A DNA stretch of 63,224 nt from an uncultured Pseudomonadales bacterium (GCA_964645645.1 CAZYBC010000006.1:1-63224), one strand, 5' to 3'; positions 8,807 to 61,907 are shown, counted from the stretch's first letter. Made by a program: numbers and translations. Notes: generated by a model from the letters alone, not told the origin.

Positions 8807-8878
8807 GGAAAAACCAATATGTCTTTATAAACGCAATCGCTTCGCTCAAATGGTTTATAAAGACACATTGGTTTTTTC
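8807..8878. repeat. Long hairpin element with GCGAAGC apex (family A)
   Basis: Arms 8807-8832 and 8853-8878 (24/26); 20-nt loop reads CATTTGA-GCGAAGC-GATTGC on the minus strand; abuts the PIN gene stop. Confidence 0.85.
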
Positions 8879-9396
8879 TAATAAAAATAAATTCCATATA
8901 CTTGTAAACCTCTTTCTAATTGAATTAAGAAATATGTTTTTAGATTAAAAATAGAAGCTAAAAAATCTTTAGGGTTTTTAGTTAATAAACATAGATCTTT
9001 TGCATGAATTTTAGTCATGGCAGCTAAACAAAAATCAGTTAGAGAAACAGCTTTTCCTGCTTGTCCATATTTTTCTACTAACCAAGGAATTTCTTCTGTA
9101 AATACTTTGGGCAAAATTGGCAACAGATAATCACCGATAATCTCTTTAATCAACAAAGTTTTTTGTTTAAAAATATTTTTAGTATCAGAACCTTTAGTAA
9201 ATTCCGCCACAACAGGAATAATAGTTACTAAAGTAATATTATTGCTTCTACATTCAGCAACAAAATTAGAAAAAATTTCAGGATAGCTTGAGTAATCACC
9301 AAAAAATGAAGTATCTAATAAAAGATGCTTATTTTGCAAACGTTGAAAAAAATCCTGAGGTAGTAGAATTTTCTCTCTCCCTGACAAGGTTTTCAC
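8878..9396 (-). CDS. PIN-domain protein (VapC-like ribonuclease); start uncertain
   Basis: LLLDTSFF, VVAEF, SLTDFCLAA and LLTKNPKDF give the four acidic PIN motifs. Confidence 0.75.
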   Translation of the reverse strand: MKTLSGREKILLPQDFFQRLQNKHLLLDTSFFGDYSSYPEIFSNFVAECRSNNITLVTIIPVVAEFTKGSDTKNIFKQKTLLIKEIIGDYLLPILPKVFTEEIPWLVEKYGQAGKAVSLTDFCLAAMTKIHAKDLCLLTKNPKDFLASIFNLKTYFLIQLERGLQVYGIYFY

Positions 9397-9523
9397 TTTC
9401 TTTTCTTAGGGCAGTTGCTACTTTATTGGCCAATTGAATCATTTCCCGCTTATTTTTAACTTGCAGTCCTTTAACTTGAGGAAAAATGTCGTCAAATGAA
9501 ATAAAAGTTTTTCTACTAAGCAT
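9329..9523 (-). CDS. Small ORF, putative antitoxin of the PIN protein
   Basis: 64 aa from ATG 9523, preceded by TGC-AATAAT 6 nt upstream; upstream of and overlapping the PIN ORF. Confidence 0.5.
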   Translation of the reverse strand: MLSRKTFISFDDIFPQVKGLQVKNKREMIQLANKVATALRKESENLVRERENSTTSGFFSTFAK

Positions 9524-9620
9524 ATTTTTATTATTGCACAAATTTTTCTAAAAAATAGACTTATTAAAACTTCATTCGTGCTTATTATTTCCATTTCCAC
9601 CTCTGGTATAATACAGTGTG

Positions 9621-10790
9621 ATGGAAATTATAAAACTAACTGATTTACCAGCTAAAAAAATTATCGAACGGGCCTGTGAGGTTTTAGCCCAAGGTGGTTT
9701 GGTGATTTATCCAACTGAGACTGTTTATGGGGTTGGCGTAGATGCTACAAATCAGCAAGCTGTAGATAAATTATTGGCTTATAAATCTCGCCGCGAAGGT
9801 AAACCTTTATCCATTGCTGTAACTGATGAAGAGATGGCTGGTAAATTTGTAAAAATCAATGACCAAGCCCATCATATTTATCAACGTTTTCTACCCGGAC
9901 CTGTCACGGTTGTTTCTAAAGTTAAAGAGCCAAGCCAGCAGCAATTACTTTTAGCCAATGGCGTGGCCAGTGAATTTCAAACCGTAGGGATTAGAATTCC
10001 TGATTTTCCTTTAATTAAAAATTTGGTGCAAGCTTATCAAAAACCAATTACCGCTACTTCGGCTAATGCGTCTGGTGAAAAAAGACCTTATCAGATCAGC
10101 GATATTTTAGAACGACTTTCTAACAAACAAAAAAATTTAATTGATCTAATTATTGATGCTGGTGAGTTACCCAAAAATGAACCTTCTAGTGTAATTGATA
10201 CTACTTTATCTACACCAGTAACTTTGCGGGCTGGAGCGATTAAATTTGAGCAACAACATACTGAACCAAGCAACGAACAACTAAGCCCACTTTTTGAACT
10301 CAAAGCTCGCACCAAATTGTTGTCTAATAATGAACAAGAAACCAGCGATTTAGCTGGTAAATTATTGCTGAAATATTTAGATCAATTAAAAACCACCGGG
10401 TTGGTGATCGGCTTAAATGGTCGTTTGGGAGCTGGTAAAACTATCTTTGCTAAAGGGGCGGCTAAATTTCTTAAAATTACTAATTTATTACGTTCTCCAA
10501 CTTATACTTATTGGTTTGATTATGATTTTACGAGATTTCAAACTAGTGGCAAATTAATTCACGCAGATTTATGGAAAATTGATGATCCACAAATTTTGGA
10601 AAAAATTCAATTAATGGAAAATTTACAAGCTAATCATGTTTTATTAATTGAGTGGTTTAATCAATTAGATAATCAGCAATTAGCTAAAATTGCTCAACAA
10701 CAAGCGCCTTTAATTGTGGTTTCTTTAACTAATACTAATGAAGAAAATTCTCGAGAAATTATCATTGAGGAATATCTTGCTAAAAAATAA
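9621..10790 (+). CDS. tsaC-tsaE: Fused threonylcarbamoyl-AMP synthase (TsaC/YrdC) and TsaE ATPase
   Basis: N-terminal YPTETVYG, KSRREGKPL, TSANASG; C-terminal GRLGAGKT, SPTYT, HADLWKI, LIEW; one uninterrupted frame (ORF track starts at GTG 9618). Confidence 0.9.
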   Translation: MEIIKLTDLPAKKIIERACEVLAQGGLVIYPTETVYGVGVDATNQQAVDKLLAYKSRREGKPLSIAVTDEEMAGKFVKINDQAHHIYQRFLPGPVTVVSKVKEPSQQQLLLANGVASEFQTVGIRIPDFPLIKNLVQAYQKPITATSANASGEKRPYQISDILERLSNKQKNLIDLIIDAGELPKNEPSSVIDTTLSTPVTLRAGAIKFEQQHTEPSNEQLSPLFELKARTKLLSNNEQETSDLAGKLLLKYLDQLKTTGLVIGLNGRLGAGKTIFAKGAAKFLKITNLLRSPTYTYWFDYDFTRFQTSGKLIHADLWKIDDPQILEKIQLMENLQANHVLLIEWFNQLDNQQLAKIAQQQAPLIVVSLTNTNEENSREIIIEEYLAKK

Positions 10791-10791
10791 A

Positions 10792-59866: not shown

Positions 59867-59887
59867 ACGCTAAATTAGCTCCTTATC

Positions 59888-61717
59888 ATGAATACTCAAA
59901 AATTAATGCGTAATTTTTGTATTATTGCGCATATTGACCACGGTAAAACCACTCTTACTGACGCTTTTTTGCGCCTCACTAAAACCGTGTCTGATTTACA
60001 GTTTCATACCAGAATGATGGATTCTAATCCCATTGAACAAGAAAAAGGTGTCACTATTAAACTTGCTCCTGTCAGAATGAAATATCAATATCAAGACAGT
60101 CAAAATGAAGACACTCCTAATGGTGAATATATTTTAAATTTGATTGATACTCCTGGCCACGTTGATTTTGGTTATGAAGTTAACCGTTCCTTAGCTGCCT
60201 GCGAAGGAGCACTCTTATTAGTTGATGCCACTCAAGGTATTCAAGCCCAAACTTTAGCCAACTACCAAAAAGCCAAAGATTTAAACCTGACTATTATCCC
60301 TGTAATTAATAAAATTGACCTACCTAGCGCTGATTTAGAAAGAAGTATCCTAGAATGCATGGAAACTTTTAATGTAGCCGAAGAAGATATTCTGCTCTGT
60401 AGTGCTAAAACTTCTCAAGGGGTAGAACAAATTTTAAAAACTATTGTAGAAAAAATTCCCCCTCCAACTGGCTTTGATGATCCTCAACTTAACCAAAAAC
60501 CGCTTAAAGCGCAAATTATTACCTCAATTTTTGATAATCATTTAGGTGCCATTGCTTATATTAGAATGATTGAAGGGACACTTAATAGAGAAACTCTTTA
60601 TCTTTTTCACAGTCAGACCAGCTTTGAGCCCATTGAATTTGGCTTTTTTATTCCTAACCGAATTAAAACTCAACAATTAATAGCTGGCGAAGTAGGTTAT
60701 ATTGCCACCGGCCTCAAAGATATTAAGCTTCTTAAAATTGGTGACACCATCACCAGTTTTAATCAACGTCAAAATATCCAAGCTTTAGCTGGTTTTAAAG
60801 AACCAACTCCAATGGTGTTTATGGAACTTTACCCAGTTGACACCGCTGATTTTCATCTTTTAGAAGAAGCAATGAGCAAGCTAGCCATTCATGACAGCGC
60901 CCTGCAATACTCAGCCACTCATTCTCTGGCTCTTGGCAATGGCTTACGTGTTGGGTTTTTAGGAATTTTTCATGCAGAAGTAGTGAGAGAAAGATTAACA
61001 AAAGAATTTTCCCTTAATTTAATCGCTACTGCGCCTTCGGTTGTTTATCGGCTCACCTTAAAAAATGGGGAAACTATTATTATCAAAAATCCTGGCGAAA
61101 TGCCTGATCCAAATTTAATTGAACAAATTGAAGAACCAGTTGTTACTGCTTTAATTTATACTCCTGAAGAATATGTCGCCAATGTAATGAAATTCGTCCG
61201 TACTAAACGGGGTGTTTTAATTAACACCAATCGCAGCGGTAATCGTAATATTTTGGAATATCAAATTCCTTTAGCCGAATTAATTACAGATTTCCACGAT
61301 CAACTTAAGTCTCTATCTTCTGGTTTTGCTTCTTTAGAATATGATCTCACTGGTTATCAAGTAGTTGATGCCGTTAAAGTCAGCATTGTAGTTCATCATG
61401 AATCAATTGAAGCCTTAAGTTTTATTTGTCCAAGAGATCAAGCCGAAAACAGAGCTCGCAAGTTGGTCATCAAATTAAAAGATGTCATTCCTAAGCAACT
61501 TTTTGAAATTCCTATTCAAGCAGCGCTTGGAGGAAAAGTGATTGCTAGAGAAACTATTAAAGCTTTTAGAAAAGACGTGACTGCTAAATTATATGGTGGA
61601 GATGTAACAAGAAGAATGAAACTATTACGTAAACAAGCCGCTGGTAAAAAAAGAATGAAGCAATTTGGTAAAGTAGAGTTAAACCAAGAAGCATTTTTGG
61701 CGGTGTTGGAGAGTTAA
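59888..61717 (+). CDS. lepA: Elongation factor 4 (LepA)
   Basis: AHIDHGKTT, DTPGHVDF, GFLGIFH and KLYGGDVTRRMKLL motifs. Confidence 0.97.
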   Translation: MNTQKLMRNFCIIAHIDHGKTTLTDAFLRLTKTVSDLQFHTRMMDSNPIEQEKGVTIKLAPVRMKYQYQDSQNEDTPNGEYILNLIDTPGHVDFGYEVNRSLAACEGALLLVDATQGIQAQTLANYQKAKDLNLTIIPVINKIDLPSADLERSILECMETFNVAEEDILLCSAKTSQGVEQILKTIVEKIPPPTGFDDPQLNQKPLKAQIITSIFDNHLGAIAYIRMIEGTLNRETLYLFHSQTSFEPIEFGFFIPNRIKTQQLIAGEVGYIATGLKDIKLLKIGDTITSFNQRQNIQALAGFKEPTPMVFMELYPVDTADFHLLEEAMSKLAIHDSALQYSATHSLALGNGLRVGFLGIFHAEVVRERLTKEFSLNLIATAPSVVYRLTLKNGETIIIKNPGEMPDPNLIEQIEEPVVTALIYTPEEYVANVMKFVRTKRGVLINTNRSGNRNILEYQIPLAELITDFHDQLKSLSSGFASLEYDLTGYQVVDAVKVSIVVHHESIEALSFICPRDQAENRARKLVIKLKDVIPKQLFEIPIQAALGGKVIARETIKAFRKDVTAKLYGGDVTRRMKLLRKQAAGKKRMKQFGKVELNQEAFLAVLES

Positions 61718-61720
61718 AAA

Positions 61721-61785
61721 ATTTGATTTTATATTTAAGAACACAACAAGCTACGCTTGAATGGTTCTTAAATATAAAATCAAAT
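61721..61785. repeat. Long hairpin element with GCGTAGC apex (family A)
   Basis: Perfect 22-bp arms 61721-61742 and 61764-61785; 21-nt loop reads CATTCAA-GCGTAGC-TTGTTGT on the minus strand. Confidence 0.9.
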
Positions 61786-61840
61786 TACTCAGCCTTTATT
61801 TGAAGGAAGTTTTTGTTCTTGGCAACCATTCTTCCAATGA

Positions 61841-61907
61841 TTTTCTAAATTATTTATGACAACCATTCAAGCGTAGCTTGTTGCGTTGCCAGAAACAATT
61901 TAGAAAA
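61841..61907. repeat. Long hairpin element with GCGTAGC apex (family A), opposite orientation
   Basis: Arms 61841-61863 and 61885-61907 (20/23); loop CATTCAA-GCGTAGC-TTGTTGC is 20/21 identical to its neighbour while the stems differ. Confidence 0.85.

Follow-up and report, generated by a model that had tools for sequence, protein, structure and literature searches.

A 63,224-nucleotide stretch of DNA from an uncultured Pseudomonadales bacterium (GCA_964645645.1, CAZYBC010000006.1:1-63224; here called the window) holds seven long hairpins plus partial copies of them, most at the 3' ends of genes. An element is built from a long AT-rich stem at or on a stop codon, a small conserved asymmetric internal loop, a mini-stem of 2 to 6 bp, and a G-N-A triloop at the apex (GNA; N, any base). 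We read these elements as lineage-specific palindromic intergenic repeats that work like repetitive extragenic palindromic (REP) sequences and bacterial interspersed mosaic elements (BIMEs) but are built differently, that serve or are tolerated as 3'-end hairpins, and that are kept palindromic by DNA-level processes. We hold this composite reading with confidence and doubt in about equal measure. Comparison with the sequences of relatives shows formation and editing of the palindromes at the level of DNA, with the two arms changing together; it also shows flipped loops, hairpins broken at the apex, new copies at new places, and decay of old ones.

An inverted-repeat scan that allowed long loops independently recovered four hairpins (E1 to E4) at or near the coordinates given in an earlier reading of this DNA (the original prediction), which had listed five complete elements with near-perfect stems of 20 to 26 bp. 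E1, E2, and E4 have such stems, as does E3 if one bulge is allowed, whereas the stem of E5 is split by an 8x8 internal loop into an outer part of 11 bp and an inner part of 4 bp. T1 and T2 are two long-stem, long-loop hairpins additional to that list. The reported apexes all match the sequence (GCGAAGC in E1 and E2, ACGAAGT in E3, GCGTAGC in E4 and E5, and GCGCAGC in a half element). The window contains 4 strict hairpins (stem of 14 bp or more, centered XY-GNA-Y'X' apex), and 200 Markov-simulated windows averaged 0.015, so the hairpins are real and go far beyond chance. Applied to 754 kb from 47 other Patescibacteria genomes, the same scan found one weak case, and it found none in 567 kb of DNA from other phyla. 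The heptamer GCGNAGC occurs 19 times against 9.9 expected, with 6 of the 19 inside elements. Folded as single-stranded DNA (ssDNA), the elements reached z-scores of -4.5 to -11.6, with E1 to E4 at -8.7 to -11.6. Most predicted folds contain the 3-nucleotide apex atop the mini-stem, and the parts described earlier as open loops of 20 to 23 nucleotides are mostly paired in them, with a small conserved internal loop below the apex mini-stem.

The relatives used for comparison were contigs from public sequencing runs, obtained by exact-protein look-ups and two protein searches, and the clade DNA compared came to about 84 kb in total. Exact-protein look-ups with LepA, GroES, and a 230-amino-acid protein gave no match. 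Strain L001 is 92 to 95% identical to the window at the DNA level. Contigs L135 and L138 come from one sample and encode GH18 and LepA proteins with 79% and 86% identity to those of the window, respectively. L136, L139, L140, and L189 stand at 62 to 77% protein identity, and L181 to L183 carry relatives of a 121-amino-acid gene of the window. In GTDB, the closest genomes belong to Patescibacteria of the Microgenomates, Pacebacteria, or Woesebacteria type, with a LepA identity of 70% or less. No long hairpin was found in about 54 kb of the more distant relatives (62 to 77% amino acid identity), and the hairpin family is therefore restricted to a narrow clade.

Position relative to genes is a shared property. 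E1, E2, E3, E4, a hairpin of L001 that we call B, and both hairpins of L135 lie 0 to 6 nucleotides from a stop codon or overlap it, and promoter-like sites stand directly after E1 and after E4/E5. An A-tract/T-tract at the base, as in bidirectional terminators, occurs at E1 and B; the other elements have no T-run. The strand on which the GNA apex is read is sense to the abutting gene in about five cases and antisense in about five, and it is also mixed relative to the GC skew, which is uniformly negative across the window. G·T and A·C mismatches are equal in number on each strand and so do not tell pairing in RNA from pairing in DNA. Inverted doublets occur three times (E4/E5, T1/T2, and a core plus hairpin in L138). 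A promoter inside the loops was considered and rejected because of ill-fitting spacings. Fold-back priming from the mini-hairpin was rejected as the origin of the stems, since it would not leave conserved mismatched internal loops.

The evidence for editing at the DNA level comes largely from the locus of the GH18 and SIMPL genes. In L135 and L136, these two genes are convergent with no genes between them, so the RelE/CopG toxin-antitoxin (TA) pair that the window and L001 share was either inserted there or lost in the other relatives. L135, although without TA genes, has a hairpin after GH18 (3155-3229; the orthologue of E2) and another after SIMPL (3341-3415; the orthologue of B). By this sequence comparison, the TA insertion is younger than the hairpins that follow GH18 and SIMPL. 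The borders of the insertion relative to L135, after ccaaa(a)ttc (about position 31300) and before agaccaca (about 31858), fall in the spacer and not at hairpin apexes. Of the two TA modules named in the original prediction, RelE is supported and PIN is weak: the PIN-like open reading frame (ORF) matches Pfam PIN_12 at E=0.07, has an unusable AlphaFold single-sequence model (pLDDT 39), and has no match in NCBIfam or PHROGs.

In the L135 orthologue of E2, the stem covers the last codon and the stop codon of GH18. Its loop, CTTCTTttGCTTCGCaaAAAGAT, differs from the E2 loop, CTTCTTaaGCTTCGCttAAAGAT, solely by a compensated mini-stem swap (AA..TT to TT..AA), and the unpaired CTTCTT/AAAGAT flanks are identical. 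Over the 20 nucleotides from the stop codon to the loop, the two are only 50% identical; 9 of 20 pairs have changed on both sides and are still paired. Hairpin B is complete in L001 (aaaaaaatagaatgtattaatcc / gaagtatCTTGGCGAAGCCAAGcgaacta / ggattaataacattctattttttt), has the apex CTTGGC-GAA-GCCAAG, and abuts the SIMPL stop codon. Its loop matches that of L135 (22 of 29 positions, about 76%) only when one of them is reverse-complemented, with the flanking genes collinear, which indicates that the loop has flipped between the relatives. The inner stems differ by 4 nucleotides in length on both arms, with pairing kept. Such matched insertions or deletions and flips are expected of intrastrand template switching or arm-to-arm conversion and are hard to obtain from independent mutations under RNA-level selection. 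The window equals L001 up to position 32050 (...CTTGGC) and then diverges inside the GAA triloop of B, whose right half is replaced by aaataggtga and a complete E3 that again ends 5 nucleotides from the SIMPL stop codon. Orthologous hairpins have been kept at the ends of GH18 and SIMPL across about 23% nucleotide divergence. The flipped loop, the concerted arms with their matched indels, the breakpoint in an apex triloop, and the lack of a fixed GNA orientation point, in line with the original prediction, to hairpins that form in DNA and not only in RNA. A different hairpin lies between GH18 and SIMPL in L136 (4089-4156; stem of about 11 bp, 24-nucleotide loop, no GNA apex), suggesting that a hairpin at this convergent junction is older than the family.

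The behavior of a repeat family is seen in class I, one of five sequence classes (class I [E1, E4, and E5], E2 type, A type [E3 and partial copies], B type, and T type) that are united by architecture and the GNA-capped mini-hairpin. The stems had been described as unrelated, which is true of the locus-specific outer stems. E1, E4, and E5, however, align over the inner stem and loop (consensus ...TTTAnnAAC CATTCAAGCGTAGCTTGTTGTGTT nnTAAA...), are joined in this alignment by two copies from L138, and make up one repeat family with half-element similarity z-scores of 4.2 to 8.5. A class I covariance model scored all five copies at 55 to 71 bits and E2 at 31.6 bits, with no further copies in the window. 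An 11-nucleotide palindrome, AAGCGNAGCTT, is common to E2, E4, and E5.

Downstream of LepA, the next gene and its TGcTATAAT promoter follow within 18 to 22 nucleotides in L139, L140, and L189, with no hairpins in the spacer, whereas about 190 nucleotides (E4, spacer, and E5) separate the LepA stop codon from the same promoter in the window. L138 has an E5-like, stemless class I core after LepA (CCGTTCAAACGTAGCTTGTTGTGTT), to which E5 probably corresponds. The stem and loop of a second L138 element, the hairpin at 2036-2090, resemble E1, whose locus in the window differs; a different gene follows the L138 hairpin, on the other strand. Neither E1 nor the PIN-like ORF accompanies the relatives of the 121-amino-acid gene in L181 to L183. 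Class I elements are thus found at nonorthologous sites, as young perfect copies (E4) and as decayed ones (E5 and the L138 core), and some sites are empty, as expected of a repeat family. A cassette of gene plus hairpin was rejected: the PIN-like ORF next to E1 and the gene next to the L138 hairpin encode proteins without similarity. The extended -10 box, TGtTATAAT (61908-61929; TGcTATAAT in L139), ends 6 nucleotides before the ATG of the 230-amino-acid gene, and its position suggests a leaderless or near-leaderless mRNA. All elements and partial copies are listed in Table 1.

Table 1. Hairpin elements and partial copies in the window, numbered from its first nucleotide
Element	Coordinates	Strand	Class or type	Structure	Context
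E1	8807..8878	(-)	class I	stem 26 bp, 2 mismatches, loop 20; minus-strand reading ...tataAAC CATTTGA GCGAAGC GATTGC GTTtata...	overlaps stop codon of 172-aa PIN-like ORF by 1 nt; A5/T6 tract at base; directly followed by promoter-like -35 for next gene
E2	31172..31234	(-)	E2 type	perfect 20-bp stem, 0 mismatches, loop 23 = ATCTTTAAGCGAAGCTTAAGAAG	begins at base after GH18 stop codon; L001 copy identical
alpha	31872-31925	(+)	A-type partial	palindrome acattgtaaat-t-atttacaatgt, then ttacaacGTCTGTAACGAAtt	
beta	31930-31965	(+)	A-type partial	diverged left arm and start of loop	
gamma	31973..32010	(+)	A-type partial (half element of the original prediction)	A left arm, GTCTGT, GCGCAGC; without right arm	common to L001
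half-B	32011..32050	(+)	B type	left half of hairpin B (aaaaaaatagaatgtattaatcc gaagtatcttggc), cut inside apex	
E3 (delta)	32061..32127	(+)	A type, complete	AAC GTCTGTA ACGAAGT AAAGCA GTT; 14 perfect inner pairs, about 23 with one bulge	5 nt from SIMPL stop codon; absent from L001 and L135
E4	61717..61789	(-)	class I	stem 26 bp, 2 mismatches (23-26 bp), loop 21; AAC CATTCAA GCGTAGC TTGTTGT GTT	starts at LepA stop codon
E5	61828..61920	(+)	class I, decayed copy	core 61850-61887 = inverted copy of E4 core (38 nt, 87%)	TGtTATAAT promoter for 230-aa gene follows
T1	1349..1423	(+)	T type	23-bp stem, 29-nt loop, no GNA apex	
T2	1444..1515	(+)	T type	20-bp stem, 32-nt loop, apex TGAGT-ATC-ACTCA (not GNA)	

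A pair of divergent tRNA-Met genes (1212-1281, minus strand, and 1524-1598, plus strand) flanks T1 and T2, whose loop cores are related once one of them is inverted. The arms of T2 hold TATAAT-like hexamers facing both tRNAs.

Under the reading that we prefer, the elements would occupy the space right after genes, where a hairpin is useful or harmless. There, they may set a gene apart from the promoter that follows or from a convergent neighbor, in the role of a terminator, an insulator, or protection of the mRNA 3' end. Some would persist for long with a conserved loop core, while others would be gained, decay, or be reshuffled. Intrastrand template switching (quasi-palindrome correction), together with hairpin breakage and repair, could both maintain and reshuffle the palindromes. 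A dedicated enzyme would not be needed for this, and mobilization could also occur in trans, through an enzyme encoded outside the window. A probable role of the conserved loop core is to nucleate folding and/or to contact a factor; that the E2 loop and its orthologue have the same unpaired bases argues for a sequence-specific partner. The hallmark of very stable DNA mini-hairpins is a C:G-closed GNA triloop (PMC13037366, PMC3201870), and maintenance of the palindromic form at the DNA level is consistent with this stability.

Several points weigh against this reading. We infer termination or stabilization from position only. Most elements are without a U-tract, and ordinary GC-rich terminators coexist with them. 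T1 and T2, between divergent tRNA genes, are not in a 3'-end position. The strict conservation of unpaired loop bases implies a specific partner, and copy number and placement rest on the 84 kb of clade DNA. Loops of RNA terminators tend to be GNRA or UUCG tetraloops. The C:G-closed GNA triloop is instead known for its stability in DNA (PMC13037366, PMC3201870).

One alternative concerns the A-type subset only. At least four A-type copies (alpha, beta, gamma, and delta, the last being E3) span positions 31872 to 32127 upstream of RelE/CopG. The half element of the original prediction (about 31974-32010) is present, with its GCGCAGC apex, as one of several A-type partial copies rather than a lone half. 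The palindrome of alpha overlaps the -35 hexamer of the region's best promoter match, TTTACA-17-TATAAT (11/12), which is correctly placed for the antitoxin gene, and the inner stem of E3 (ATAATTTACAAC/GTTGTAAATTAT) repeats the half-sites of that palindrome, TTGTAAAT-T-ATTTACAA. The motif AACGTCTKT occurs five times in the window against 0.78 expected, and four of the five lie within the A-type cluster. A-type copies are absent from the TA-free relative L135 and repeat promoter half-sites, and from these sequences, the A-type elements probably came with the TA cassette; they may include antitoxin operator repeats. It is possible, if doubtful, that E3, the half element, alpha, and beta are nothing but operator half-sites of a CopG/ribbon-helix-helix-type antitoxin that arrived with the RelE cassette and stand outside the general hairpin system. 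That all A-type copies lie within 260 bp upstream of the TA operon fits this explanation. However, E3 has the 7/7/6 architecture of class I and a GNA apex, the loop of T2 opens with GTCTGT and closes with AAGCA as in E3 although it is 30 kb away, and E3 is absent from L001 despite the same TA genes. A 46-nucleotide direct repeat (89%; 31958-32003 and 32044-32089, with the last 29 nucleotides identical) connects the sequence preceding the half element with the half-B/E3 junction. A simple tandem duplication was rejected as the origin of E3, as this repeat is perfect over 29 nucleotides only and the copies diverge after GTCTGT.

It is unlikely, in our estimation, that the elements are RNA-level 3'-end hairpins only (factor-independent terminators or mRNA stabilizers) that are not mobile, with their likeness due to convergent selection for a stable apex and the rearrangements incidental. 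Stop-codon abutment, orthologous persistence, compensatory stem changes, the A/T tracts at E1 and B, and the presence of a different hairpin between GH18 and SIMPL in L136 all agree with such a role, and like intrinsic bidirectional terminators, the elements follow stop codons and stand between convergent genes or before a promoter. Convergence does not account for class I stem and loop sequence shared at unrelated loci, nor an RNA-only role for the LepA spacers of three relatives that lack hairpins, for T1 and T2 in a divergent promoter region, or for a loop orientation that is random relative to transcription; the GNA triloop is also atypical for an RNA terminator. An intrinsic terminator has a GC-rich stem of 5 to 15 bp, a loop of 3 to 8 nucleotides, and a 3' U-tract. 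The stems here are instead two to three times longer and AT-rich, carry a 20-nucleotide structured apex, belong to a repeat family with a conserved loop, and mostly lack a U-tract. A consensus terminator scan listed none of the long hairpins, picking only the 5-bp apex mini-stem of E4 (61747-61759); it is elsewhere in the window that ordinary GC-rich terminators occur (e.g., 6231-6272 and 19697-19723).

The REP, BIME, and REPIN (REP doublet forming hairpin) elements of proteobacteria are mobilized by REP-associated tyrosine transposases (RAYTs) (PMC2817692, PMC3116915, PMC3733652). Like these, the elements described here are short palindromic extragenic repeats that lie mainly after gene 3' ends, often form inverted doublets, and show birth and decay of copies; the proposed roles of REPs (termination, mRNA stabilization, and protein binding) are alike as well. 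The construction is reversed. REPs, which reach high copy numbers, conserve the stem and a GTAG/CGTC tag at one end of it and vary in the loop, whereas these elements conserve the loop core and have a mostly locus-specific stem; REP stems are about 10 to 15 bp and GC rich, and those here are 20 to 26 bp and AT rich. The flanks of E1, E2, E3, and E4 bear no GTAG/CGTC tag (GTAG occurs only inside the E4 and E5 apexes), and the outer stems are locus specific. Whereas a RAYT gene (IS200/IS605-like Y1 HUH) usually has REPs on its flanks, no such gene was seen in the 63 kb or in the relatives fetched, and the host phylum here is Patescibacteria.

Integron attC sites offer another comparison. Shared traits are structure over sequence, single-strand folding, unpaired or extrahelical bases, a position after an ORF stop codon, and AAC...GTT, which is present in four elements. 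The attC sites have R''(RYYYAAC) and R'(GTTRRRY) boxes at the outer ends (the hairpin base), L boxes, and a variable apex. Here, AAC/GTT stands at the inner end of the stem beside the loop; conservation is in the apex, and the outer ends bear no relation to one another. Unlike integrons, the locus has no IntI gene, attI site, or same-orientation cassette array, and the elements are scattered among housekeeping genes, facing both ways.

Hairpin-associated minute inversions in chloroplast noncoding DNA, and template-switch mutagenesis in Escherichia coli, flip a spacer or copy one arm to the other. The elements resemble the products of minute inversion and quasi-palindrome correction, in that loops flip between relatives and arms are kept matching. 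These are generic mutational processes, which explain perfect stems but not a conserved loop core. In diversity-generating retroelements (DGRs), a target-site hairpin with a GNA or GRNA loop lies downstream of the variable region (VR), near a reverse transcriptase (RT) and a TR/VR repeat pair. Unlike in DGRs, no RT domain was found in the window, and the hairpins stand after LepA, GH18, and SIMPL rather than after variable C-termini. Natural d(GCGNAGC)-type mini-hairpins are found at the phage G4 origin, RSF1010 ssiA, and phage N4 early promoters, where they are used by enzymes that read ssDNA (G4 primase, RSF1010 RepB', and the N4 virion RNA polymerase [vRNAP]) (PMC13037366). The triloop is the same C:G-closed GNA, read at those sites in single-stranded or extruded DNA. 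The latter are single sites with short stems on phage or plasmid replicons, whereas ours are chromosomal, dispersed, and set atop long palindromes, and no link to a primase or vRNAP was seen.

The original prediction took the elements for structure-specified recombination or nicking sites. Under this explanation, a hairpin-recognizing enzyme (HUH/RAYT-like, IntI-like, or other) encoded elsewhere in the genome would bind the folded strand, read the asymmetric internal loop and GNA mini-hairpin, and cut or recombine at the apex, mobilizing the elements or adjacent genes. The loop core and mini-hairpin would then be the recognition or cleavage site of a hairpin-specific DNA enzyme and the elements new structure-addressed sites, an "inverted attC" with conserved apex and free stem, for which we see a slim chance; activity at the apex would yield half elements, loop flips, and strain-specific gene content nearby. 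Unpaired loop bases are indeed conserved while stems are rewritten, one breakpoint lies within an apex triloop, the half element ends just past its own mini-hairpin, the inverted doublets recall REPINs and BIMEs, the loci vary between strains, and GNA mini-hairpins serve ssDNA-reading enzymes elsewhere (PMC13037366). Pfam searches for the genes suggested by the original prediction (RAYT/HUH, GIY-YIG, and tyrosine recombinase) found none in the window: no ORF contains an integrase, transposase, HUH/RAYT/IS200, GIY-YIG, or RT domain, and the contigs of the fetched relatives likewise yielded no candidate recombination enzyme. With no such enzyme, cassette-like borders, attC box layout, or REP tag in evidence, with TA cassette borders away from hairpins, no consistent breakpoint or cut position (the two half elements break at different points relative to the triloop), no cassette array, no target-site duplications evident by eye, GH18 and SIMPL hairpins that stay at the same gene ends over about 23% nucleotide divergence, and generic palindrome instability accounting for every flip and break seen, we consider dedicated recombination or nicking sites distinctly unlikely.

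That this is a structure-defined family which similarity searches miss was supported. Rfam gave only subthreshold, microRNA-precursor-like matches (17 to 33 bits against thresholds of 55 to 211 bits). Exact-pattern scans of viral contigs returned 52 matches to AACCATTYRAGCGNAGC, 1 to TTCAARCGTAGCTTGTTG, 0 to the E2 loop, and 39 to ACAACGTCTGTNNCGNAG, none with flanking stems, as expected by chance. In JGI metagenome contigs, the class I core had 0 matches and the E2 loop had 5, none of them in a long-stem hairpin of the family type. We found no published description of such elements in Patescibacteria.

The window has a GC content of about 34% and encodes housekeeping proteins (GroES/GroEL, a TsaC-TsaE fusion, TsaD, SmpB, two class A penicillin-binding proteins, NrdR, a B12-type ribonucleotide reductase, MurJ, S20, and LepA), as well as the pilus proteins PilN and PilO. 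The fusion is a single 390-amino-acid ORF (9618-10790, plus strand) that joins TsaC (Sua5/YrdC) with TsaE, with TsaD directly 3' of it. A repeat resembling the controlling inverted repeat of chaperone expression (CIRCE; ttagcaatg-N9-ctttgctaa, about 8326-8352) lies upstream of groES, and the adjacent 121-amino-acid ORF (8403-8768) faintly matches the central part of HrcA (E=0.04). An ORF of 6,618 amino acids (34237-54093, minus strand) has Pfam matches only to an FHA domain and one TPR; its homologues in L139, L189, and L136 (5,793 to 7,610 amino acids) adjoin a purple-acid-phosphatase-like gene and pilN/pilO. Within this giant ORF, a 16-bp inverted repeat with 2 mismatches and a 37-nucleotide spacer (52617-52685) is probably due to chance. 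A palindrome with 17-nucleotide arms (2 mismatches) and a 3-nucleotide spacer, tagatttactgcgaaat AAA atttcgcagtaagttta (59360-59396), lies just upstream of murJ in the divergent murJ/rpsT (S20) promoter region and is operator-like in appearance. A 126-amino-acid ORF at 59479-59859 (minus strand) is probably spurious, as S20 overlaps it on the plus strand. At 302-1205 (minus strand), an AbiEii-type nucleotidyltransferase toxin and a DUF6922 partner start 7 nucleotides from the 3' end of a low-scoring tRNA-Met (42.8 bits), an arrangement that resembles an island integrated at a tRNA gene.

For Patescibacteria, with their tiny and tightly packed genomes, hardly any repeat families or 3'-end signals have been described. 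A conserved loop with a free stem, the reverse of what is seen in REPs, makes this family a clean natural case of structure kept by concerted evolution of the arms, and the family flags places that vary among strains and at which assemblies from short reads break. If a dedicated enzyme does exist, the elements would represent a new hairpin-addressed DNA system; if there is none, they would still be markers of DNA hairpin formation in vivo and candidate noncanonical terminators for annotation.

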